Below are positions 11,576-44,269 of a DNA stretch of 64,000 nt, one piece after another. Numbering within the stretch: position 1 is the stretch's first letter; each line of letters starts with the position of its first letter. Origin of the DNA: an uncultured Candidatus Saccharibacteria bacterium. GTDB lineage: Bacteria; Patescibacteriota; Minisyncoccia; UBA6257; GWB1-50-10. The notes under the pieces were generated by a model. That model worked only from the letters and a program-made list of their open reading frames with translations, did not search any database and was not told the DNA's origin. The stretch is from assembly GCA_964449245.1 (NCBI GenBank), contig CAYUXY010000001.1:66838-130837 (forward strand), in the 5' to 3' direction. A program made the translations under genes and the position numbers.

Positions 11576-13111
11576 TTATTCCTCAACTTTCATTCTGTAA
11601 TGAAATGCCTCTGCAATATGATTTTTATTGATTTTTTCACACCCATCCAAATCTGCAATTGTACGCGCAATTTTAAGAATACGATAGTAACCACGCGGAG
11701 AAACAAAAGATTTTTCAAGTGCTTTTTTCAAGAAAGATTCAGCATCGTTATCGAATATGCAAAACAATTCCGTTTCTTTGGAATTCATTTCTGAGTTCGT
11801 ATCGAGCAGATGTTCATTTTTGGAAAACCTGATCTTTTGCACTTCCCTTGCGAGCGATATCTTTTTTTCAAGCATTTTTTTGCCTTGCGGTTGTTCGGAA
11901 TTGCGCAGTTCGTCTATGGAAATTCTTGGCACATGGATTTGAATATCCATTCTGTCCAATAATGGCCCTGATATTTTTTTCTGATATCGCAATATTTCGT
12001 TTGCTGTGCACGTACACTCTTTCGACTGATCTTCAAAATATCCACATGGGCAAGGGTTCATTGTTCCTACAAGAGTAAATCTTGCCGGAAAAGTTATCGA
12101 ATTTTTTGCTCTCGCAATCCGTATCAGTCCGTCTTCGAGCGGTTGCCTAAGACTTTCGAGCACGTCGCGATGAAATTCCGGCATTTCATCCAAAAATAGA
12201 ATACCCTTGTGGGCAAGGCTGACTTCACCCGGCTTTGGATTTGTCCCGCCACCTATAACGGCAACAGCCGATGCCGTGTGATGAGGAGATCTAAACGGTC
12301 TCGATAGAATCTGTGCGTTTGAAATGAGTCCGGCGGCGCTGTATATTCTTGCAACATCGATCATCTCGTTTTTCGACAGCGGTGGCAACAAAGAGACGAG
12401 AGCATTGGCGAGCATCGTTTTTCCTGTTCCCGGAGGACCGGACATCATTAAATTGTGTCCCCCTGCTGCGGCAATCGCGAGGGCTCTCTTTGCATTTTCT
12501 TGCCCCTTTATATCAGAAAGCGATGGGCCAAAAGTTGGATTATTGACCGAATTATCTTCATCGGCAACAAATGGCGATATTTTTGATCTGCTTTCAAGAT
12601 GCATTATCGCATCGCGTAGCGATCGTGTTGGATAAATATTTATGCCTTGCACCATCGACGCTTCGTACGCATTTTCGACCGGAACAAAAAGCTCGTCTAT
12701 CCCATTTTGTTTGCAAAAAAGCGCTATGTTTAACGCGCCGGAAACGGGACGCAAATTCCCATTTAAAGAAAGTTCGCCGACAAACATTTTTTTATACGGA
12801 TCAAATTCTGACATTTGTTTGCTTGCCAATATATAGGCGAGGGCTATTGGAAGATCAAACCTTGTACCTTCTTTTTTAATGTTTGCCGGAGCGAGATTGA
12901 TGGTAATTCTTTTATTTTCTCTTGTTGGCGGACGGACGTCCGAATTTTTAAGTGCCGAATTAACTCTTTCTTTTGCCTCGCTTATGGCCTTATCGGCTAA
13001 GCCAACAATGTTAAAAGAATGAAGGCCGACATTCAGGTCGGCCTCAATTTCCACCAATTCCGCATCAATTCCCACTACTTCCGCAGAAAATACCTTTGCA
13101 ACTGCACTCAT
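11576..13111 (-). CDS. comM: YifB/ComM family Mg-chelatase-like AAA+ ATPase
   Basis: N-terminal Lon-like domain (GIDAELVEIEADL) is followed by Walker A MSGPPGTGKTMLA. The C-terminal stretch is the ChlI-like region. Confidence 0.85.
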   Translation of the reverse strand: MSAVAKVFSAEVVGIDAELVEIEADLNVGLHSFNIVGLADKAISEAKERVNSALKNSDVRPPTRENKRITINLAPANIKKEGTRFDLPIALAYILASKQMSEFDPYKKMFVGELSLNGNLRPVSGALNIALFCKQNGIDELFVPVENAYEASMVQGINIYPTRSLRDAIMHLESRSKISPFVADEDNSVNNPTFGPSLSDIKGQENAKRALAIAAAGGHNLMMSGPPGTGKTMLANALVSLLPPLSKNEMIDVARIYSAAGLISNAQILSRPFRSPHHTASAVAVIGGGTNPKPGEVSLAHKGILFLDEMPEFHRDVLESLRQPLEDGLIRIARAKNSITFPARFTLVGTMNPCPCGYFEDQSKECTCTANEILRYQKKISGPLLDRMDIQIHVPRISIDELRNSEQPQGKKMLEKKISLAREVQKIRFSKNEHLLDTNSEMNSKETELFCIFDNDAESFLKKALEKSFVSPRGYYRILKIARTIADLDGCEKINKNHIAEAFHYRMKVEE

Positions 13112-17599: not shown

Positions 17600-17876
17600 T
17601 TGGGTTTGTGTCAAAAAATACAGTTTTTAGTGGTTAGTTGTTAGTTTTTAGAGAAAATTTGTGGTGAGCGTAGTCGAACCATCTTTTAACTAACCTTATA
17701 AATAAACGACATTAAAACCCCGATGCTTTGATCGGGGCTCGCGACCCCCAAAGGAGCGTCGGAGTTAGATAATTAGAAATTATTTCTCCTATATTCTACA
17801 TACAATATTCTATATACTTCTGATCTAACAACTAATAACTAAAAACTAACAACTGCTCCTATGCTATAGTACATAT
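17600..17876. repeat. intergenic repeat element, copy 1 (GC-rich hairpin core 17714-17771 flanked by inverted TTAGTT-type short repeats)
   Basis: Core aaaaccccgatgctttgatcggggctcgcgacccccaaaggagcgtcggagttagata recurs at 25527-25584. Flanking arms cagtttttagtggttagttgttagttttt (17622-17650) and ctaacaactaataactaaaaactaacaactg (17825-17855) are inverted relative to each other. Confidence 0.7.
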
Positions 17877-18770
17877 ATGCCAAAGGATGCCACAAAATAC
17901 TTAGATCAATATCTTGACTATCTCGAGATAGAAAAAAATAAATCAAGGAAAACTCGCGAGAATTATGGTAGGTATCTTTCCTCTTTCCTTGAAAACAGGG
18001 ATATAAAAAACATTTCCGATATAAATACTGAAAATGTGCGTAAATTCAGGGTATGGCTTTCTGAAAAGAATCTTAAAAAAAATACGCAAGGGTATTATGT
18101 GATAGCCATCCGAAATTTCTTGAAATATCTAATAAAGCAGGGAGAAGAAGTCCTTTCTCCGGATATGATAGAGCTTCCAAAAGTTTCAAGACGCGACATA
18201 GAAACGCTCGACTATAAAGAGCTTGAGCGCCTTATGAGCGCGCCGGAAGGAAATGACGTAAAAACTCTTCGAGATAAAGCGATACTCGAAACTTTTTTTT
18301 CGACCGGACTTAGGCTTTCCGAGCTCTGCTCTCTTCCGCGATATATAGATTTAGAACGAGGGGAAGTTTCGGTAAGAGGCAAGGGAGACAAACTAAGAGT
18401 TGTTTTCCTTGCGGATAGTACCCGCAAATCGATTAAAGAATATCTTGCTAAGAGAACCGACCCAGAAGAAGCTCTTTTTGTAAGCGTCAGCAAATCCGGA
18501 AAAATTCTCGGGAAAATAACTCCGCGCTCCGTCGAAAGACTCGTGGATTTTTATGCGAGAAAAGCCGGAATTCCAAAAAAAATACATCCGCATCAGCTTC
18601 GCCACTCGTTTGCCACGGATCTTTTGATAAACGGCGCAGACCTGCGCTCAGTGCAGGAACTCTTAGGTCACGCAAATATATCAACAACTCAAATTTATAC
18701 GCACCTTACAAACAAAGAGCTTCGCGATGTGCACGAAGCCTTTCACGGACGCCGGAGAAAAAAAGAGTAG
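17877..18770 (+). CDS. xerD: tyrosine site-specific recombinase XerC/XerD family
   Basis: N-terminal SAM-like domain followed by catalytic motifs HQLRHSFATDLL and LLGHANISTTQIYTH. 297 aa. Confidence 0.85.
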   Translation: MPKDATKYLDQYLDYLEIEKNKSRKTRENYGRYLSSFLENRDIKNISDINTENVRKFRVWLSEKNLKKNTQGYYVIAIRNFLKYLIKQGEEVLSPDMIELPKVSRRDIETLDYKELERLMSAPEGNDVKTLRDKAILETFFSTGLRLSELCSLPRYIDLERGEVSVRGKGDKLRVVFLADSTRKSIKEYLAKRTDPEEALFVSVSKSGKILGKITPRSVERLVDFYARKAGIPKKIHPHQLRHSFATDLLINGADLRSVQELLGHANISTTQIYTHLTNKELRDVHEAFHGRRRKKE

Positions 18771-18772
18771 TG

Positions 18773-18856
18773 TGCTGGGGGGGAGACTTGAACTCCCAAG
18801 AGGTTGCCCTCACAAGGTCCTAAGCCTTGCGCGTCTGCCAATTTCGCCACCCCAGC
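18773..18856 (-). tRNA. tRNA-Leu (anticodon TAG), class II with long variable arm
   Basis: Hand-folded from the minus strand. Acceptor GCTGGGG/CCCCAGC, anticodon loop CTTAGGA and T-loop TTCAAGT. Confidence 0.8.
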
Positions 18857-25439: not shown

Positions 25440-25700
25440 CGGGCATTTGATCGTTCAGTAATTTATTCGAAATTCCCGCCCGAACGACTGATTCGTTCAG
25501 TCGGGCAGGCGAAACAGGACGAGGTCAAAACCCCGATGCTTTGATCGGGGCTCGCGACCCCCAAAGGGGCGTCGGAGTTAGATAAATCGAAATTTGCGTT
25601 ACTTTCTACTTTTATCTTTCGTCTTTTAACTTATTCCCTACATACTATATACAATATTCTATATACCTTTTGCTTTTCGCTACTGTTAATGGTTGTTTTT
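25440..25700. repeat. intergenic repeat element, copy 2 (core 25527-25584)
   Basis: A 58-nt core near-identical to 17714-17771 (one mismatch). The 17-mer tacaatattctatatac recurs downstream, as in copy 1. Confidence 0.7.
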
Positions 25701-27767: not shown

Positions 27768-27805
27768 CAAAACACAAAAAGCCCAAAAGGGCTCTTTGTG
27801 TTTTG
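27768..27805 (-). terminator. hairpin immediately 3' of tRNA-His
   Basis: Imperfect palindrome aaacacaaaaagccc-aaaa-gggctctttgtgttt with a stem of about 14 bp. Confidence 0.4.
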
Positions 27806-27877
27806 GGTGCCTAACGGGAGTCGGACCCGTATCAAGGGCTCCACAGGCCCTTGTGTTACCGTTACACCATAGGCACC
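27806..27877 (-). tRNA. tRNA-His (anticodon GTG) with encoded G-1
   Basis: Hand-folded from the minus strand. G-1 pairs with C73, acceptor GTGCCTA/TAGGCAC and anticodon loop CTGTGGA. The T-loop TCCGACT has C at position 55. Confidence 0.75.
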
Positions 27878-28370: not shown

Positions 28371-29057
28371 ATGGACAATGAATTATTGCGAACAATAGGA
28401 AGCTGGATAATAGAACACCAAGCATGGACCGACGTTATACTTGCCGGAGGCATAATTTTACAAGGTAGCATTACGATTCTCGTAGCAGTTTATCTCGCCA
28501 TTAATGACAACATAGAATGGACGAGGTTTTTTGTGGTTACACTCGGGGCTCTTATTATAGAAGATTTTACCGTATATGCCGTTGGTAAAATGTTTCGCAT
28601 GGGACGGAGCGGATGGAAATTTCATAGAAAAAACAAATCCAATAAAAAAATACAAATGTACCTCTTCTATTTGAAGAAAAATATGGGTAAGCTCGCTATT
28701 GTTTCGCGTTTTATACCGTGGGCTACGATGACCGTCATGTTTTTAATCGGATGGTCAAAGACAAAGCTGAATACTTTTGCAAAAGTATACTTCCCATCCC
28801 TATTTATATGGTTTGGAAGTATGACAATCGTTGCGTATTTGCTTATGTCGGGTTTGCACTATTTGCATTCTACGCATGCGTTCCGGAATGCGGAAATAAG
28901 TATAGCCGTAGTTGTTGTAATTTTCTTATTCGGCGGGCAGATTATAAGGAAGCTCTTTGGAAAGTATGCGGCTTTTGATAAAAAGGCTACCGAAATTGGC
29001 GAAGTTGTAGAGGAGTTAAGCTTAGAAGATAAAAAAGACGCAGAGCAAAAAATATGA
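28371..29057 (+). CDS. integral membrane protein, DedA/TVP38-like
   Basis: Multiple TM helices. The SRFIPWATMTV segment resembles the DedA R(F/Y)IP..RT motif. Confidence 0.45.
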   Translation: MDNELLRTIGSWIIEHQAWTDVILAGGIILQGSITILVAVYLAINDNIEWTRFFVVTLGALIIEDFTVYAVGKMFRMGRSGWKFHRKNKSNKKIQMYLFYLKKNMGKLAIVSRFIPWATMTVMFLIGWSKTKLNTFAKVYFPSLFIWFGSMTIVAYLLMSGLHYLHSTHAFRNAEISIAVVVVIFLFGGQIIRKLFGKYAAFDKKATEIGEVVEELSLEDKKDAEQKI

Positions 29058-29112
29058 AGCCTTTGCATTCCGAGCTTTTTTTGGTAGGATAATTGCGTTA
29101 TTTATTTGACGC

Positions 29113-29184
29113 GCCTGGATAGCTCAGTGGTAGAGCGAAGGTCTGAAGAACCTTGCGTCGGGGGTCCAATTCCCTCTCCAGGCA
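29113..29184 (+). tRNA. tRNA-Phe (anticodon GAA)
   Basis: Hand-folded. Acceptor GCCTGGA/TCCAGGC, D-arm GCTC-AGTGGTA-GAGC, anticodon stem AAGGT/ACCTT with loop CTGAAGA, T-arm GGGGG-TCCAATT-CCCTC and discriminator A. No encoded CCA. Confidence 0.7.
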
Positions 29185-29582
29185 CACGAATGTGTGCATG
29201 AGAGCGAGCAAATCTACTTTGCTCGCGTAGGGAATTGGACGCCGGAGCATGTGTGAGTCAGTAGACGAGCACGCGAGGCGGTGACCAGTTCTATCTGCCG
29301 AAGGCAGACCCGAAAGTGAGCGTCGGCGAGCTTGAGAGGCGAGGGATATTCCCTCTCCAGGCACACGAATGTGTGCATGAGAGCGAGCAAATCTACTTTG
29401 CTCGCGTAGGGAATTGGACGCCGGAGCATGTGTGAGTCAGTAGACGAGCACGCGAGGCGGTGACCAGTTCTATCTGCCGAAGGCAGACCCGAAAGTGAGC
29501 GTCGGCGAGCTTGAGAGGCGAGGGATATTCCCTCTCCAGGCACACGAATGTGTGCATGAGAGCGCTTGTCTCGCCGAAGCTT
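29172..29582 (+). repeat. GC-rich tandem repeat: two identical 180-bp units (29172-29351, 29352-29531) plus a ~50-bp partial third, beginning inside the tRNA-Phe T-arm
   Basis: Exact duplication is visible in the sequence. Each unit ends gagggatatt|ccctctccaggcaca, the same 15 nt as the tRNA-Phe 3' end. Units carry multiple perfect hairpins (gcacac-gaat-gtgtgc, gcgagcaaa-tctac-tttgctcgc, tctgcc-gaa-ggcaga). Confidence 0.9.
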
Positions 29583-29630
29583 ATTGTTTTCAATAAGCGT
29601 AGGCGGAAGATGGATATTTGCTCGCGTGAA

Positions 29631-30200
29631 CTAATACGACGGATTTTTCTCTTCTACTTTGTTTATAAAGTTTGAATATCGAGCGAGAGCGAATAACGCT
29701 CCAGAAAGTCGATTCAAAAACTGAAGCATAGCGGAGGAAATTTCAAGCTCTTTAGCCGTTTCAACAGCGAGCCGTTCAACTCTTCTCGCGAATGAACGAG
29801 CTATGTCTATTCTCGAAGATATTTCAGAACCACCGGGTATTATAAATTTTTTGAGTGGCGGTAATATTTCATCTATTTTAAAAACCATTTTTTCAAGTTG
29901 TTCGGTGTGAGAATGCGTGATGGCATTTTTTATTTCTTGTTTGAACGCTATAGCCCCGAATTCTGCTTGAGCCACAAAAAGCATTTCTTGGATTTCTAAT
30001 AGCATTTCAGAAATACCGATTATGTTGCTCTCGTTAATCCTTTTGTCTCGCTCGGCTTCGCTACGGCACCACCCGAGAGTAGAATTCAACTCATCTATAG
30101 TTCCGAGGAGTCGTATAATTGGATGGTCTTTTGATATTTTTGTACTTCCGATTGTGCATTCTCCGTTGTCTCCATTTCCAGTGAAAAAAGGTGTATTCAT
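29631..30200 (-). CDS. PduO-type ATP:cob(I)alamin adenosyltransferase-like protein
   Basis: N-terminal motifs FFTGNGDNGECTIGS and IIRLLGTIDELNSTLGW match the TG-GD.G.T and R..A.G..DEL.S..G pattern. 189 aa. Confidence 0.7.
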   Translation of the reverse strand: MNTPFFTGNGDNGECTIGSTKISKDHPIIRLLGTIDELNSTLGWCRSEAERDKRINESNIIGISEMLLEIQEMLFVAQAEFGAIAFKQEIKNAITHSHTEQLEKMVFKIDEILPPLKKFIIPGGSEISSRIDIARSFARRVERLAVETAKELEISSAMLQFLNRLSGALFALARYSNFINKVEEKNPSY

Positions 30201-30617: not shown

Positions 30618-31550
30618 TTAATACTCGTTTATGTTCGGAATAGTTGCGAGCTCATCCGCGATCTCTTTAATTGCCTGCTTGATTGTTTGGATAGATTCAC
30701 GTATTTTCTGGAGGTCGTCAACGAGCTGATTTTTTACAACCTGAATATTAGATTTCGCCGTATCTTCCGATTCGATTGTAATCCCATATGTTTTGCCGGT
30801 TTGTATACGAAGCGCTTCTCTGGCTGAAGAGATTAGGTCCGTGACCGTTTGGATTTTTGCTCTTATTTCGCTCGTATTTGCGCCTGTTATGGAAACTTTG
30901 TCGGCTCGAGTGGCAATGTTTGCGAGTATCACTTCCATTTTTTCAATCGCAGTCGCAAAATTGCTTGTAATGCGCTCGTTCAAGGAGTTCATATTTTCAT
31001 CTATTCTGGTTATTATCTGTTGTTTCTTTTCGTCTTTGATGTTTTGCAACTTTGTTTGAAGCTCTTCTCTTTTGCGTTCGCGAATTACGGCCGCCTCCTC
31101 TTTGGTGGCACTAATGGCACTCGCAAACTGCGCACGCTTTTCTTTGATTTCCATCGCAAACTCTTGTCGCATCGTTTGTAGGATAGCTTTATTATCATCT
31201 GTAACCGATGCTTCATTTTCATTAACATTTCCGTTCGACACCGAGTCGTCATTTGCGGACGATGTTCCGTCTTCGTTAAGTTTACCGGAATATGATGAGG
31301 AATCGCTTGTCATTTCCGATCCGTCCTCATTTTTAATGAAATTTTGTATTTTGCGTACGGTTGCACGCTGTTTTAAAAATTCATTACCTGTAGAAATCGC
31401 TTTATCTTCGGAAGGTGCAATGGAATAATTTTGCATCATAGCTTGTTCTTGCGCTCGCAAAATATCCATCTCACTCGGTTGCTCTTTGGCGGAAGAAATC
31501 GAAGTCAGCATAAAACAAAAAATTATAGTTAAGATTAATTTATTTTTCAT
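30618..31550 (-). CDS. secreted coiled-coil hypothetical protein
   Basis: Signal peptide (LTSISSA) followed by long heptad-like charged regions. Confidence 0.5.
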   Translation of the reverse strand: MKNKLILTIIFCFMLTSISSAKEQPSEMDILRAQEQAMMQNYSIAPSEDKAISTGNEFLKQRATVRKIQNFIKNEDGSEMTSDSSSYSGKLNEDGTSSANDDSVSNGNVNENEASVTDDNKAILQTMRQEFAMEIKEKRAQFASAISATKEEAAVIRERKREELQTKLQNIKDEKKQQIITRIDENMNSLNERITSNFATAIEKMEVILANIATRADKVSITGANTSEIRAKIQTVTDLISSAREALRIQTGKTYGITIESEDTAKSNIQVVKNQLVDDLQKIRESIQTIKQAIKEIADELATIPNINEY

Positions 31551-35369: not shown

Positions 35370-35427
35370 TTTTTATAAATATTAAAAACGACTATTTTAA
35401 TGTCGATCGGCAAGAAAAGAATCTTTG

Positions 35428-35499
35428 TGCGCGTGCCAGGACTCGAACCTGGAACCGACCGTGTATAAGACGGTTGCTCTACCATTGAGCTACACGCGC
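35428..35499 (-). tRNA. tRNA-Ile (anticodon TAT)
   Basis: Hand-folded from the minus strand. Acceptor GCGCGTG/CACGCGC, D-arm GCTC-AATGGTA-GAGC, anticodon stem ACCGT/ACGGT with loop CTTATAC and T-loop TTCGAGT. Confidence 0.65.
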
Positions 35500-40485: not shown

Positions 40486-42579
40486 TTAAAGAAGAATTTC
40501 TCTCGGTTTTGCTCCATCTCCGGGACCTACGACACCGCGTTCTTCCATAATATCCAAAAGTCTGGCTGCGCGGGCGTAGCCGACTTTGAGTCTTCTTTGA
40601 AGCAGAGATGCCGATGCTTTACCAGCCGATCGTACGGTTTCTACAGCGTCCTCATATAAATCATCATCATCGGCCTTATCTTCAAATTCGTCGATATTTA
40701 AAGACGGGCGGTCATTAGCCTCCTCTATTGAGGCGGTGTTGATGTGTTCTGACGAGAGCGACGTATTATTGTCTTTAATAAAATTCACCACAGATTTTAT
40801 TTCTTCCTCGGTTATAAACGCTCCTTGTACACGTCGCGGTTTTGAAAGTTCTGAAGAAAGGAAAAGTAAATCTCCGCGTCCAAGCAATTTTTCTGCTCCG
40901 GCGGAATCAAGTATTGTACGCGAATCAATCTGACTCGCAACTTGTAGTGCGATGCGTGTAGTTATGTTTGCTTTTATAAGTCCGGTAATAACTTCAACGG
41001 ACGGTCGTTGAGTTGAAACAATCAAATGGATGCCGGTCGCGCGCGCCATTTGGGCAAGACGTATAATTGCACCTTCAACTTCTCGGCCGAATGAAGACAT
41101 AAGATCAGCGAGCTCGTCTATAACGATAATAATATACGGCAGGTCGTTGTGGTCTTTGTGATAACTCTTAATGTCTCGACATCCGGAATCGAGAAGCAAC
41201 TGATATCTTCTGTCCATTTCTTCTATCGCCCATCGAAGAGCTCCGAGCGCCTTTTTGTTTTCGGTAATGACGGGAGTTAAAAGATGCGGAATGCCACTAT
41301 ATATTGAAAGCTCAACGCGTTTTGGATCAACCATAATAAAACGAAGCATATCCGGAGAATTTTTAAAAAGCATTGAAAGAAGAATGGCGTGAAGCGTAAT
41401 TGATTTTCCGCTACCCGTAGCTCCGGCGACGAGAAGATGGGGCATCTTACTTATATCCTGAAACACCGGTTCACCGCTCACGTTTCTTCCGAGTCCGAAA
41501 GAAAGCGCGCCGGATTTCTGAAACTCTGGATATAAAAGAATGCTTCCGAGTCTGACTGTTGCCGCGGAGCGATTAGGAACTTCAATGCCAACGAGCGACT
41601 TGCCCGGAATCGGAGCCTCTATTCGTATTGGATGCGCGGCTAACGAAAGAGCAAGGTCTTGTCCCAATGCTGTAATTCGAGATAGTCGGACTCCCTCCGC
41701 AGGCTTAAGCGTATATCTCGTTACCGTTGGACCTACATTTACTTCGCCCATCTCGACAGAAATACCAAAACTCTCAAGAGTTCTTTTGATAACGTTTGCG
41801 TTTGCGCGTAAATCTCCGATTGTCGGTTTTTCAACAACGGATGACAGTAAAGAAATCGGAGGGGCTATATAATTTTTTATTGGTTTAAATTTCGGTTCGG
41901 GCATATTTGTGTCCATCGAAGAAGCTGCCGCGACCACATCGGTTTTTTCGCGCGTATCTTTTTTGTCGTTCTTCTTTTTTTCTTGAGTCGCTTGAACGGG
42001 TTCTGAAATCACAACTTCATTTTCGACTGCTTCGCCCTCAACTTTCTCTGTTCGTTTTTTAAGAAAATTAAATTCAGGCAAACGAAGATTTAGCGGTTTA
42101 TTAAGTATGATGAGAAAAGAGATTGTCAGAATTACAAGCATAATGACAAGCGCCGCGGGAATTCCAAACGGGATTTTTAGCGACCCTATGAGATGCCCTA
42201 CAAGCCCTCCCCTGCCACCGGCGATAATATCAATACATCCAAGCCCCGATAAAAATATTAAAATACTCGTTACGACTGTAATGCCAACCGTTCTCCTTCT
42301 TTCCTGTTCTTCTTCTGATATGAAAGAAAATGCGATTATAAAAAATATAAGAGGAAATAAAAAATATCCGAGTCCAAAAAGTTTTGAGAGACCGTGATAG
42401 ATTGATTTGCCGAGTGGACCGGCTTGACCTATTCCGGCTAAGAGAAAAATAATTGCTATGCCCAAGAAAAAAACAACGAGAACGGTTTTCAAAATATCTG
42501 GATGTAAAACTTCGGAGAGTTTCAGTTTGGTATTTTCAATTGTAGCAGGTGCGAATTTTTTCTTTTTGGTGCGTGACAT
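40486..42579 (-). CDS. ftsK: DNA translocase FtsK/SpoIIIE
   Basis: N-terminal TMs with Walker A LVAGATGSGKS. The C-terminal region is a gamma domain (RLKVGYARAARLLD). Confidence 0.9.
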   Translation of the reverse strand: MSRTKKKKFAPATIENTKLKLSEVLHPDILKTVLVVFFLGIAIIFLLAGIGQAGPLGKSIYHGLSKLFGLGYFLFPLIFFIIAFSFISEEEQERRRTVGITVVTSILIFLSGLGCIDIIAGGRGGLVGHLIGSLKIPFGIPAALVIMLVILTISFLIILNKPLNLRLPEFNFLKKRTEKVEGEAVENEVVISEPVQATQEKKKNDKKDTREKTDVVAAASSMDTNMPEPKFKPIKNYIAPPISLLSSVVEKPTIGDLRANANVIKRTLESFGISVEMGEVNVGPTVTRYTLKPAEGVRLSRITALGQDLALSLAAHPIRIEAPIPGKSLVGIEVPNRSAATVRLGSILLYPEFQKSGALSFGLGRNVSGEPVFQDISKMPHLLVAGATGSGKSITLHAILLSMLFKNSPDMLRFIMVDPKRVELSIYSGIPHLLTPVITENKKALGALRWAIEEMDRRYQLLLDSGCRDIKSYHKDHNDLPYIIIVIDELADLMSSFGREVEGAIIRLAQMARATGIHLIVSTQRPSVEVITGLIKANITTRIALQVASQIDSRTILDSAGAEKLLGRGDLLFLSSELSKPRRVQGAFITEEEIKSVVNFIKDNNTSLSSEHINTASIEEANDRPSLNIDEFEDKADDDDLYEDAVETVRSAGKASASLLQRRLKVGYARAARLLDIMEERGVVGPGDGAKPREILL

Positions 42580-43951: not shown

Positions 43952-44159
43952 TGATTCCTCTTGCTGCTGGCATTGCGATTAATCGTTGAGAGTGAGTATA
44001 AGCCAGTTTAATCTCTATATTAAAACTGGCGATGCGTCTTTTAAAAGAGCTTAACTAAGAAAATCAGTTTTTATTGAAAAATCAAAAAAACCAGCTTCAA
44101 AATGTCACGGAAGCTGATAATGCGATGAAACCTACATTTTTCAAAAAATATGCAAAAAG

Positions 44160-44175
44160 TGTTTGTCGACAAACA
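44160..44175. promoter_or_regulatory. candidate operator palindrome TGTTTGTCGACAAACA (distal copy)
   Basis: Perfect 16-bp inverted repeat. Confidence 0.4.
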
Positions 44176-44237
44176 TTTTTATTAGAGAAGCGAGTAGTGC
44201 GATGAAACCTACATTTTTGCCAAAAACGCAAAAAAAG

Positions 44238-44253
44238 TGTTTGTCGACAAACA
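44238..44253. promoter_or_regulatory. candidate operator palindrome TGTTTGTCGACAAACA (proximal copy, ~20 bp upstream of yraN ATG)
   Basis: Perfect 16-bp inverted repeat that extends to 18 bp as GTGTTTGTCGACAAACAC. Confidence 0.4.
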
Positions 44254-44269
44254 CTTTATAACAAAAAAA

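Follow-up and report, generated by a model that had tools for sequence, protein, structure and literature searches.

A tRNA-linked repeat architecture behind tRNA-Phe and tRNA-His genes outside the enterobacteria

Behind a tRNA-Phe gene of an uncultured Candidatus Saccharibacteria bacterium, a GC-rich tandem array begins inside the tRNA itself and closes each of its units with a copy of the tRNA 3' end, which raises the question of what kind of element this is and how it came to be built from pieces of its neighbour. The array lies in a 64,000-nucleotide stretch of contig CAYUXY010000001.1 (GenBank assembly GCA_964449245.1, positions 66,838 to 130,837 of the forward strand), which we call the window and whose own numbering is used below. 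A first-pass annotation of this DNA had offered three readings: a structured RNA co-transcribed with tRNA-Phe and released by tRNA processing, the product of serial site-specific insertion, or a tRNA-derived satellite. We find that the element has the anatomy and geometry of the tRNA-linked repeats (TLRs) of Escherichia coli, that homologues stand behind two tRNA species, that an internal segment tracks the sequence of the upstream tRNA, and that compensatory changes preserve its base pairs. The element is probably a TLR-type trailer RNA: it would be transcribed together with its tRNA and cut by the enzymes that process tRNA 3' ends, and unequal recombination would have doubled it. The antisense copy of the T-arm in every unit, the homologues and the known class (the E. 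coli tRNA-linked repeats, or RtT) had been overlooked in the annotation.

Anatomy of the tandem unit

The tRNA-Phe(GAA) gene occupies 29113..29184 of the plus strand (its end falling at 29184/5), as called by ARAGORN and by Rfam (RF00005, 65.4 bits). It encodes no CCA, as is true of all five tRNA genes of the window, and its T-arm reads GGGGG-TCCAATT-CCCTC. The array starts at A58, within the T-loop, and extends over 29169..29564 of the plus strand with a period of 179 bp, 2.2 copies, 100% matches and no indels; it was found by a repeat search and is the one array reported by Tandem Repeats Finder. The tandem repeat that the first-pass annotation had seen fused to the tRNA 3' end is thereby confirmed at 100% identity, as are its two exact units, at a period of 179 bp in place of 180. 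That difference moves the repeat positions it had placed at 29352 and 29532 by 1-2 nt, and the partial third copy, estimated at about 50 bp, measures 38 nt.

This 38-nt block, ATTCCCTCTCCAGGCACACGAATGTGTGCATGAGAGCG, occurs three times, at 29169, 29348 and 29527, and combines 16 nt from the tRNA 3' end (A58 to the discriminator A73) with one further base and 21 nt of trailer. Every unit closes with the 3' part of the tRNA T-loop, the 3' strand of the T-stem, the 3' strand of the acceptor stem and the discriminator. Counted from the first base after discriminator A73 to the discriminator copy, unit 1 lies at 29185..29363 (plus strand; delimited by sequence, blastn of the unit against the window, and fold) and the identical unit 2 at 29364..29542 (plus strand; delimited by the repeats and by covariance model R1, described below, which scores 107 bits on both units). 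The start of a third unit follows at 29543..29564 on the same strand, with the 22 nt CACGAATGTGTGCATGAGAGCG recognised by sequence and repeat search. Past these 22 nt, the similarity of the flank to the unit is at chance level (29.5 against 26.4 +/- 5.0 for shuffles), which rules out the 3' flank as a decayed third unit.

We refer to the direct copy of the tRNA 3' end as X. It reads ATTCCCTCTCCAGGCAC, corresponds to tRNA positions 58-73 plus 1 nt, and lies at 29348..29364 of the plus strand; the same 17 nt are present in the tRNA itself (29169-29185) and at 29527-29543. The repetition of the tRNA 3' end noted in the annotation therefore stands, with a shared length of 17 nt and not the 15 it gave. 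In addition to this direct match, which begins at +162, the unit contains an interrupted inverted copy of the same tRNA region, so that its plan runs from the tRNA 3' part (X) through the inverted copy (segments A1-P2-A2) and a hairpin core to X again. Eight control tRNAs of the same loci, searched for inverted or direct matches in the 250 nt downstream, gave at most 7 nt in either sense.

Segment A1, GTGTGCATGAGAG, at 29192..29204 (plus strand; repeated at 29371-29383 and 29550-29562), is an imperfect antisense of tRNA positions ~63-74, delimited by means of the sequence and of predicted folds. With the preceding tRNA end, or with X, it builds a junction hairpin composed of GCACAC-GAAT-GTGTGC, UG/CA and AGAG/CUCU. 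It is separated from A2 by the 9-bp hairpin P2, GCGAGCAAA-TCTAC-TTTGCTCGC, at 29204..29226 (plus strand; repeat at 29383-29405). Segment A2, AGGGAATTGGAC, at 29229..29240 (plus strand; repeat at 29408-29419), is a perfect 12-nt reverse complement of tRNA-Phe positions 53-64, and its target, GTCCAATTCCCT, lies at 29164-29175.

The core opens with the long hairpin P3 at 29240..29281 (plus strand; repeat at 29419-29460), for which RNAalifold, a pair table and alignments indicate conserved CGGAGC and CGCGAG sides and a variable tip; the two sides could form a tandem G.A internal loop. It is followed by segment A3, GGTGACCAG (29280..29288, plus strand), with the conserved form CGGTGNCCAG, whose GTGNCC is complementary to the GGCAC of the tRNA end or of its X copy. 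At 29294..29339 (plus strand) stand the hairpin TCTGCC-GAA-GGCAGA, which is confined to the window copy and missing in L026, and the hairpin P5 (ACCCGAAAGTGAGCGTCGGCGAGCTTGAGAGG). Finally, sequence and fold define a T-arm-like hairpin, GAGGG-ATATT-CCCTC, at 29341..29355 (plus strand; repeat at 29520-29534), the 3' strand of which is the start of X. This hairpin and the other hairpins named in the annotation are all present in the sequence.

As had been stated, the unit is richer in GC than its surroundings, at 57.5% against 40.6% for the window. Its plus strand folds at -78.1 kcal/mol (z = -4.5 against shuffles), compared with z = -3.2 for the minus strand. The element shows no sign of coding for protein: the plus-strand frames of the window unit are closed by many stops, the open frames in the homologous element of locus L026 (see below) are not conserved, and the minus-strand open reading frames (ORFs), including one of 109 aa, have no homologue among 5.8 billion proteins, in agreement with their earlier dismissal as spurious. 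Two checks that had been proposed for the locus came back empty. A search of Rfam returned the tRNA and nothing else, both at the gathering threshold and at E <= 10, and neither ARAGORN nor the Rfam tRNA model called any extra tRNA-like halves in the units.

We also noted a peculiarity of the tRNA itself. T-loops near-universally start with TTC, with the U at position 55 becoming pseudouridine. In the window, the T-loops of tRNA-Phe (29164-29171) and tRNA-His (27805-27876) begin with TCC (TCCAATT and TCCGACT), placing a C at position 55, whereas the other three tRNAs of the window and the tRNA-Phe and tRNA-His of its relatives have TTC.

Homologues in related genomes and their fit to different tRNAs

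Relatives were reached through the flanking VTT protein, a DedA/VTT-domain membrane protein encoded at 28371-29057, by way of seven protein clusters and then their contigs. The covariance model R1, which describes the module core, was built from the window and from one of these contigs, L026. Beyond the two window units, it matches L026 (108 bits) and a third locus, L031 (26.3 bits, E = 3e-4), so that similar elements do exist in related genomes.

In L026, whose VTT protein is 55% identical to that of the window, one copy of the element stands behind tRNA-Phe and aligns locally with the window unit at z = 14.9. The order at this locus is tRNA-Phe, a terminator-like hairpin, the element and, directly after it, a predicted intrinsic terminator; the element ends in ACCCCCGCGGCAC, the 3' end of its own tRNA-Phe (a direct match of 13 nt). 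In L031, the module follows tRNA-His and is cut by the contig end, its 3' part lying beyond the contig. Here tRNA-His is succeeded first by a terminator hairpin and then by GGGTG..CTG, which is antisense to the acceptor end of tRNA-His. Next come a P2 hairpin of 9 bp, whose CTGC loop is shared with L026, the segment GGGTCGAAC and the conserved GCCGGAGC. Since the contig breaks exactly 30 nt past the tRNA-specific segment, the L031 genome appears to hold a further copy with a different antisense segment. A fourth contig, L029, probably contains the first 9 nt of another copy behind tRNA-His, and the terminator-like hairpin between tRNA and element is shared by L026, L031 and L029. By contrast, L027 and L028 carry a bare tRNA-Phe with no element, even though L027 is close to L026 (VTT proteins 87% identical). 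The other relatives (contigs P0004-P0009) added nothing, and most of them ended before the tRNA.

Both antisense segments change together with the tRNA upstream. The counterparts of A1, GCGGG in L026 and GGGTG..CTG in L031, each fit their own tRNA. In A2, the window and L026 tRNA-Phe genes differ at 4/12 of the matched positions, and the L026 segment GGTGAATCGAAC nonetheless fits its own tRNA-Phe T-arm, GTTCGATTCACC, at 12/12 positions, while GGGTCGAAC of L031 is a perfect complement of positions 53-61 of tRNA-His (GTTCGACCC). In all three members A2 occupies one and the same alignment position, just before the conserved GCCGGAGC.

The helices of the module are likewise maintained through sequence change. 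P2 keeps its 9 bp in the homologues with other sequence (GCAAAACAA-CTGC-TTGTTTTGC in L031), and between the window and L026 both sides have changed in 4/9 pairs of P2 and in 5 of P3, giving 9/21 pairs in total. Within these 21 pairs there are no one-sided changes, and one pair is broken. Sequence conservation is found in single-stranded or internal-loop parts, namely CGGAGC/CGCGAG and CGGTGNCCAG. Judged from these signs of constraint, the element is a conserved folded nucleic acid and not a decaying insertion scar; most simply, it would be an RNA on the strand of the tRNA. In the predicted minimum free energy structure of the precursor, the tRNA 3' half is moved onto the antisense segments and the tRNA 5' end pairs with the spare copy. 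The computed gain of this swapped fold over independent folds is -12.6 kcal/mol for the window, -9.2 for L026 and -12.0 for the E. coli locus.

Several further observations concern the related loci themselves. The tRNA-Phe of L026 (7270-7342) differs from that of L027 (5190-5262) throughout the anticodon stem and T-stem, and the L027 gene has an almost identical counterpart in L028, a far more distant relative. It may therefore be that the tRNA-Phe gene with the element in L026 was replaced or evolves fast. The first 9 nt of this L026 tRNA-Phe and the 7 nt upstream of them are repeated 84 nt further upstream (L026 7334-7349 and 7418-7433, 14/16 nt), and the GC-rich leader holds CCCTCGAC, which is complementary to GTCGAGGG, a stretch close to the element's 3' end. 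This leader repeat may reflect leader-trailer pairing or a second duplication scar, and nothing comparable was seen in the window. In L029, one contig end lies inside a tRNA-Phe gene just before the T-loop (2447-2506, ...GGCAGGCGTCGGG) and the other lies 9 nt into the apparent element behind tRNA-His; both fit repeat-induced breaks at tRNA-linked modules.

Likeness to the tRNA-linked repeats of E. coli

TLRs, of which those behind tyrT were the first to be described, have been known in E. coli since 1978, without a known function, an early claim of a role in the stringent response having been retracted (PMC8144298). The class is defined by architecture (Egan & Landy 1978 and Rudd 1999, as summarised in PMC8144298). 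Strain K-12 has 22 TLRs at ten loci, with one to five per locus, placed behind many different stable-RNA genes, and what marks them out is a 3' end whose 18-19 bp are the same as those that end the tRNA or 5S gene upstream (PMC8144298). When we checked K-12 ourselves, tyrV was followed by 3.1 units of 178 bp; at the tyrT locus, where rttR and tpr are annotated, each unit matched Rfam RtT (RF00391) at 133-137 bits and ended in AATCCTTCCCCCACCACCA, the final 19 nt of tRNA-Tyr. An antisense segment is paired with the terminal copy in the Rfam RtT consensus. This segment is GGGAGGAT in the TLRs of argV/Z/Q, where it fits tRNA-Arg, and GGGGAAGGAT in the Tyr version; since it switches with the tRNA, the tracking of the upstream gene is itself a property of TLRs.

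The spacing of these parts is similar in the two groups. An inverted match of 10 nt at +59 and a direct match of 19 nt at +159 are found behind tyrV, compared with 12 nt at +43 and 17 nt at +162 behind the window tRNA-Phe, and 12 nt at +59 and 13 nt at +163 behind tRNA-Phe of L026. Like the tyrT/tyrV TLRs (rtT RNA, rttR), the window element lies on the same strand behind a tRNA, consists of tandem units of ~178-179 bp (3.1 versus 2.2 copies) that end in the last 17-19 nt of the upstream tRNA, has an antisense to the T-stem/acceptor junction at +43 to +59 that varies with the tRNA, and contains a GC-rich, hairpin-filled core whose predicted precursor fold swaps the tRNA 3' half. Across the family, the element stands on the same strand directly behind a stable-RNA gene in the window, in L026 (Phe) and in L031 (His), with 2.2 units in the window and one in L026, inside the range of one to five seen in the class, and with internal antisense segments of 12, 12 and 9 nt that fit Phe, Phe and His, respectively. 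With 17 nt in the window and 13 in L026, the copied 3' end is slightly shorter than the 18-19 bp of the class and lacks CCA, because the tRNA genes here encode none. Transcription and processing to a discrete RNA, the remaining feature of TLRs, would have as their only indirect support here the strand, the structure and the L026 terminator.

The differences from the tyrT units are also plain. The elements described here follow tRNA-Phe and tRNA-His and not Tyr, Arg or 5S genes, their antisense spans the whole T-loop to G53 and fits the real tRNA better than the copy, and the copied end, without CCA, is not accompanied by a tpr-like ORF. Their host, at 40% GC and with tRNA genes that encode no CCA, is clearly not enterobacterial; an exact-peptide-seeded scan of GTDB species representatives, with the adenosyltransferase encoded downstream as seed, returned only one relative, 44% identical and at a non-syntenic locus.

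The 5S-linked elements rrA, rrB and rrF lie between terminators T1 and T2 of rrnA, rrnB and rrnD, are transcribed through read-through of T1, are processed, and bind Hfq and CsrA (PMC8144298). Similarly, the L026 element sits between a terminator-like hairpin and a terminator, with the first hairpin also present in L031 and L029, and the rr elements end with 18 nt of the upstream gene. In contrast, they follow 5S rRNA and their transcription, processing and protein binding are experimental results (PMC8144298), whereas the element described here is known from sequence, and its window copy has no terminator-like hairpin after the tRNA. Another point of comparison is the 3' external transcribed spacer RNAs of tRNA operons, for instance 3'ETS-leuZ, a functional RNA that is freed from the trailer of a tRNA precursor by RNase processing (PMC8144298), but which is short and unrepeated and has neither a copy nor an antisense of its tRNA.

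Likeness in design was not matched by likeness in sequence. The RtT model RF00391 (gathering threshold 45 bits) found no match at E <= 10 in window positions 29000-29750 or in L026 6950-7550, a nhmmer profile of eight E. coli TLRs gave no match on the element, and R1 gave none on the E. coli loci L035-L037. One local match of 19/21 nt to E. coli RtT (TGCCG.AGGCA..GACCCGAA; z = 4.5, equalled in 2/500 shuffles), which falls in the hairpin region at 29294..29339, is limited to the window copy. It should be noted that the accepted TLR rrB scores just 17 bits against RF00391, so that genuine members of the class can be very divergent; the negative results thus leave room for very distant homology, which we do not claim. 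A separate observation is that the only sub-threshold match of the TLR profile lies on the minus strand of L026 at 2237-2289, inside a 381-aa ORF (15 bits, E = 0.001), where ACGTTGCCGCGGCA..ACGCCCTGAAGGGCGA resembles a TLR hairpin followed by the CCCGAAGGGCG motif; it falls within a coding region and is probably due to chance.

Rival origins, neighbourhood and meaning

Of the three readings of the first-pass annotation, a structured RNA co-transcribed with tRNA-Phe and cut by tRNA processing seems the best supported, by analogy and by structure. It is favoured by the conserved helices with compensatory changes, the location on the tRNA strand, the L026 terminator and the processing of the E. 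coli counterparts (PMC8144298). The term tRNA-derived satellite is true as a description of the unit ends alone. Serial site-specific insertion is not needed to account for the array, since unequal recombination between the 38-bp repeats is simpler and no integrase lies nearby. A more general form of the insertion idea would make the element the remnant or miniature of an integrative element, which a tyrosine recombinase placed in the T-loop and 3' end of tRNA-Phe, with the 17-38-bp repeats as attL and attR, the T-arm-like hairpin as a symmetric core site, and the units as serial integrations or an accreted array. The direct repeats of the tRNA 3' end do begin in the T-loop, as in the T-loop class of attL/attR sites, with a symmetric stem beside them. 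The repeated block also holds an imperfect inverted repeat around GAAT, and the family is patchy among relatives, with strongly different tRNA-Phe genes in L026 and its close relative L027. Unlike an att-flanked element, however, the 162-bp insert is non-coding, with a conserved structure and an antisense segment, and no cognate integrase adjoins the repeat or lies within ~10 kb. In the annotated middle of the window (~16.7-49.7 kb) the sole recombinase is a 297-aa Xer-type protein (17877-18770), 10 kb off. Moreover, the insert is not decaying, being kept with compensatory helix changes where VTT proteins are 52-55% identical; the tracking of the tRNA by the internal antisense would be needless for att sites, the family also occurs behind tRNA-His, and no matches were found in phage, plasmid or IMG/VR collections. 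We therefore regard an integrative origin as improbable. A guide-bearing, non-autonomous mobile element would use the 12-nt antisense much as IS110 bridge RNAs, the EBS sites of group II introns or the homing guides of CASTs are used, so that a protein whose gene lies elsewhere inserts it at the tRNA end. Such an element would account for an antisense that differs between members according to their tRNA (Phe, Phe, His) next to a flanking core that remains constant. It would also fit the L031 break 30 nt past the tRNA-specific segment, as expected if a second copy of the core has another guide, and the placement of E. coli TLRs behind many different stable-RNA genes (PMC8144298). Yet no recombinase, reverse transcriptase or transposase is associated with the element at any locus seen, and no recombinase or nuclease of the IS110 type stands beside it in the window neighbourhood, L026 or L031. 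Rfam gave no match to bridge, omega or group II RNAs, such systems do not leave 13-38-bp direct repeats, and the matching can also result from selection for pairing with the tRNA-homogenised terminal copy; this origin strikes us as very improbable.

The number of units is where the assembly might mislead. The true locus could hold one unit, as in L026, or many, with 2.2 copies resulting from assembly collapse or expansion; the units are 100% identical, and the sole complete homologue, L026, is single-copy. Two short-read Logan contigs of the same strain, taken from separate sequencing runs, L002 (SRR8925737) and L003 (SRR8925738), break at the repeat, stopping exactly 30 nt past its first base. 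However, a k=31 graph must break where a block has two left contexts, and the break points thus prove at least two such contexts for the 38-nt block, which makes the tRNA-end copy, and hence the module, real; they support the repeat itself and do not fix its copy number. In E. coli, it is normal for TLRs to stand in tandem arrays of 1-5 units (our own check; PMC8144298). An artefact of copy number therefore seems unlikely to us, and would touch the number of units and not the nature of the element. A series of other identities was rejected. A type III toxin-antitoxin array (ToxI-like) would immediately precede a gene for an endoribonuclease toxin, but the gene downstream of the element runs convergently and codes for a cobalamin adenosyltransferase. 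For a group I or BHB intron in the T-loop, a permuted or split tRNA, a piece of tmRNA, a T-box, a Y-RNA-like RNA, a retron, an integron attC or CTX-type folded att site, and PATE/REP elements, the defining partner gene or motif is absent. Searches of sequence collections gave nothing to suggest a phage or plasmid origin: blastn returned no match, the pattern matches in IMG/VR came down to an unrelated phage tRNA and a 16-mer shared by chance with one phage coding sequence, and exact patterns of the junction and the tRNA 3' end had zero matches in JGI metagenomes.

Some results weigh against our own preference for a TLR-type trailer RNA. The element has no sequence homology to the E. coli family, and its membership is by architecture only. 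No promoter or terminator was predicted around the window copy. The three homologues, one of them truncated, leave the structure under-determined, and the patchy presence, exemplified by L027, hints at mobility outside the model; a family that follows different tRNAs and is absent from close relatives has undergone gain, loss or spread of some kind. In addition, A2 pairs better with the genuine tRNA than with the terminal copy, at 12 against 7 contiguous pairs in the window and 12 against 9 with a bulge in L026 (both counted by eye). A pure closing-helix role fails to explain this better fit, which keeps open that the trailer pairs with the real tRNA or its gene.

The surroundings of the element are housekeeping in character, with genes for S1, a DinB-like protein, ArfB, the DedA/VTT protein, a PduO-type adenosyltransferase, FtsH and an ABC transporter; for the proteins of the window genes at 29631-30200 and 30618-31550, exact look-ups found no record. 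The Xer-type tyrosine recombinase gene (17877-18770) ends 1 nt before a tRNA-Leu gene on the opposite strand (18772-18856), and FtsK is encoded at 40486-42579.

Elsewhere in the window, a second repeat family has two copies, at 17706-17817 and 25519-25666, which share 76 nt at 92% identity and, ~40-80 nt further on, a 30-nt AT-rich block. Each contains the hairpin CCCCGAT-GCTTTG-ATCGGGG followed by CTCGCGACCCCCAAAGGAGCGTCGGAG and lies in a divergent intergenic region, one upstream of the Xer-like recombinase gene and the other upstream of the S1 protein gene. The motif that the annotation had seen in common between these repeats (at 17714 and 25527) and the tRNA-Phe units reduces to a weak 18-nt local match, equalled by 7/1000 and 64/1000 shuffles and missing from the L026 homologue. 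Upstream of nusA, at 44110-44258, stand two ~78-bp tandem copies that each include the palindrome GTGTTTGTCGACAAACA, found for a third time at 12765-12791; it has the look of an operator. A tRNA-Ile with anticodon TAT (UAU), a species uncommon in bacteria, is encoded at 35427-35499 and adjoins tRNA-Val(TAC).

Returning to the trailer RNA, the module consists of A1 and A2, which are antisense to the tRNA's 3' third and split by P2, a core (P3, CGGTGNCCAG and P5) and the copy of the tRNA end. It would be transcribed from the tRNA promoter as a 3' trailer, in the relatives with transcription reading through the first hairpin, as with rrB. Maturation of the tRNA 3' end would release the 5' end of the module, and the same machinery would cut its 3' end at the terminal tRNA-end copy, given that the same T-arm/acceptor-like determinant stands there. 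By pairing with the terminal copy, the antisense segments would then draw the RNA together into a compact, closed body. With sense and antisense pieces of the tRNA both present, the unprocessed precursor could also adopt the swapped fold: the trailer would then pair with the 3' half of the tRNA itself, and the tRNA 5' end with the spare copy. The two identical units would stem from recent unequal recombination or slippage between the 38-bp direct repeats. The transcription and processing of the module, and any cellular role, are inferred.

A bolder and, to our minds, doubtful extension is that TLR-type modules form a general class of stable-RNA trailers, repeatedly invented or very old, with a programmable antisense 'guide' and a spare 3'-end copy. 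If this were true, a precursor could switch between the normal tRNA and a form in which its own 3' half is sequestered and the spare copy used instead, and such a switch could control, proof-read or repair tRNA 3' halves. Through the guide, the module could also place copies of itself at the ends of further tRNA genes, such as Phe and His here and Tyr, Arg and 5S in E. coli.

On a practical level, tRNA-linked modules break short-read assemblies at tRNA genes, yield spurious ORFs and can pass for the att sites of integrated elements. The TLR class itself is known, and in the literature searched it is treated as an enterobacterial peculiarity. What is new is best filed as a non-enterobacterial TLR family of the same design and a different sequence, found behind two tRNAs. 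That the same design recurs without sequence likeness and with exact tracking of the tRNA points to the design itself as what matters: the antisense, the spare 3'-end copy and the placement behind the gene. The family also gives an independent basis for comparison when asking what TLRs do and by what route they spread.

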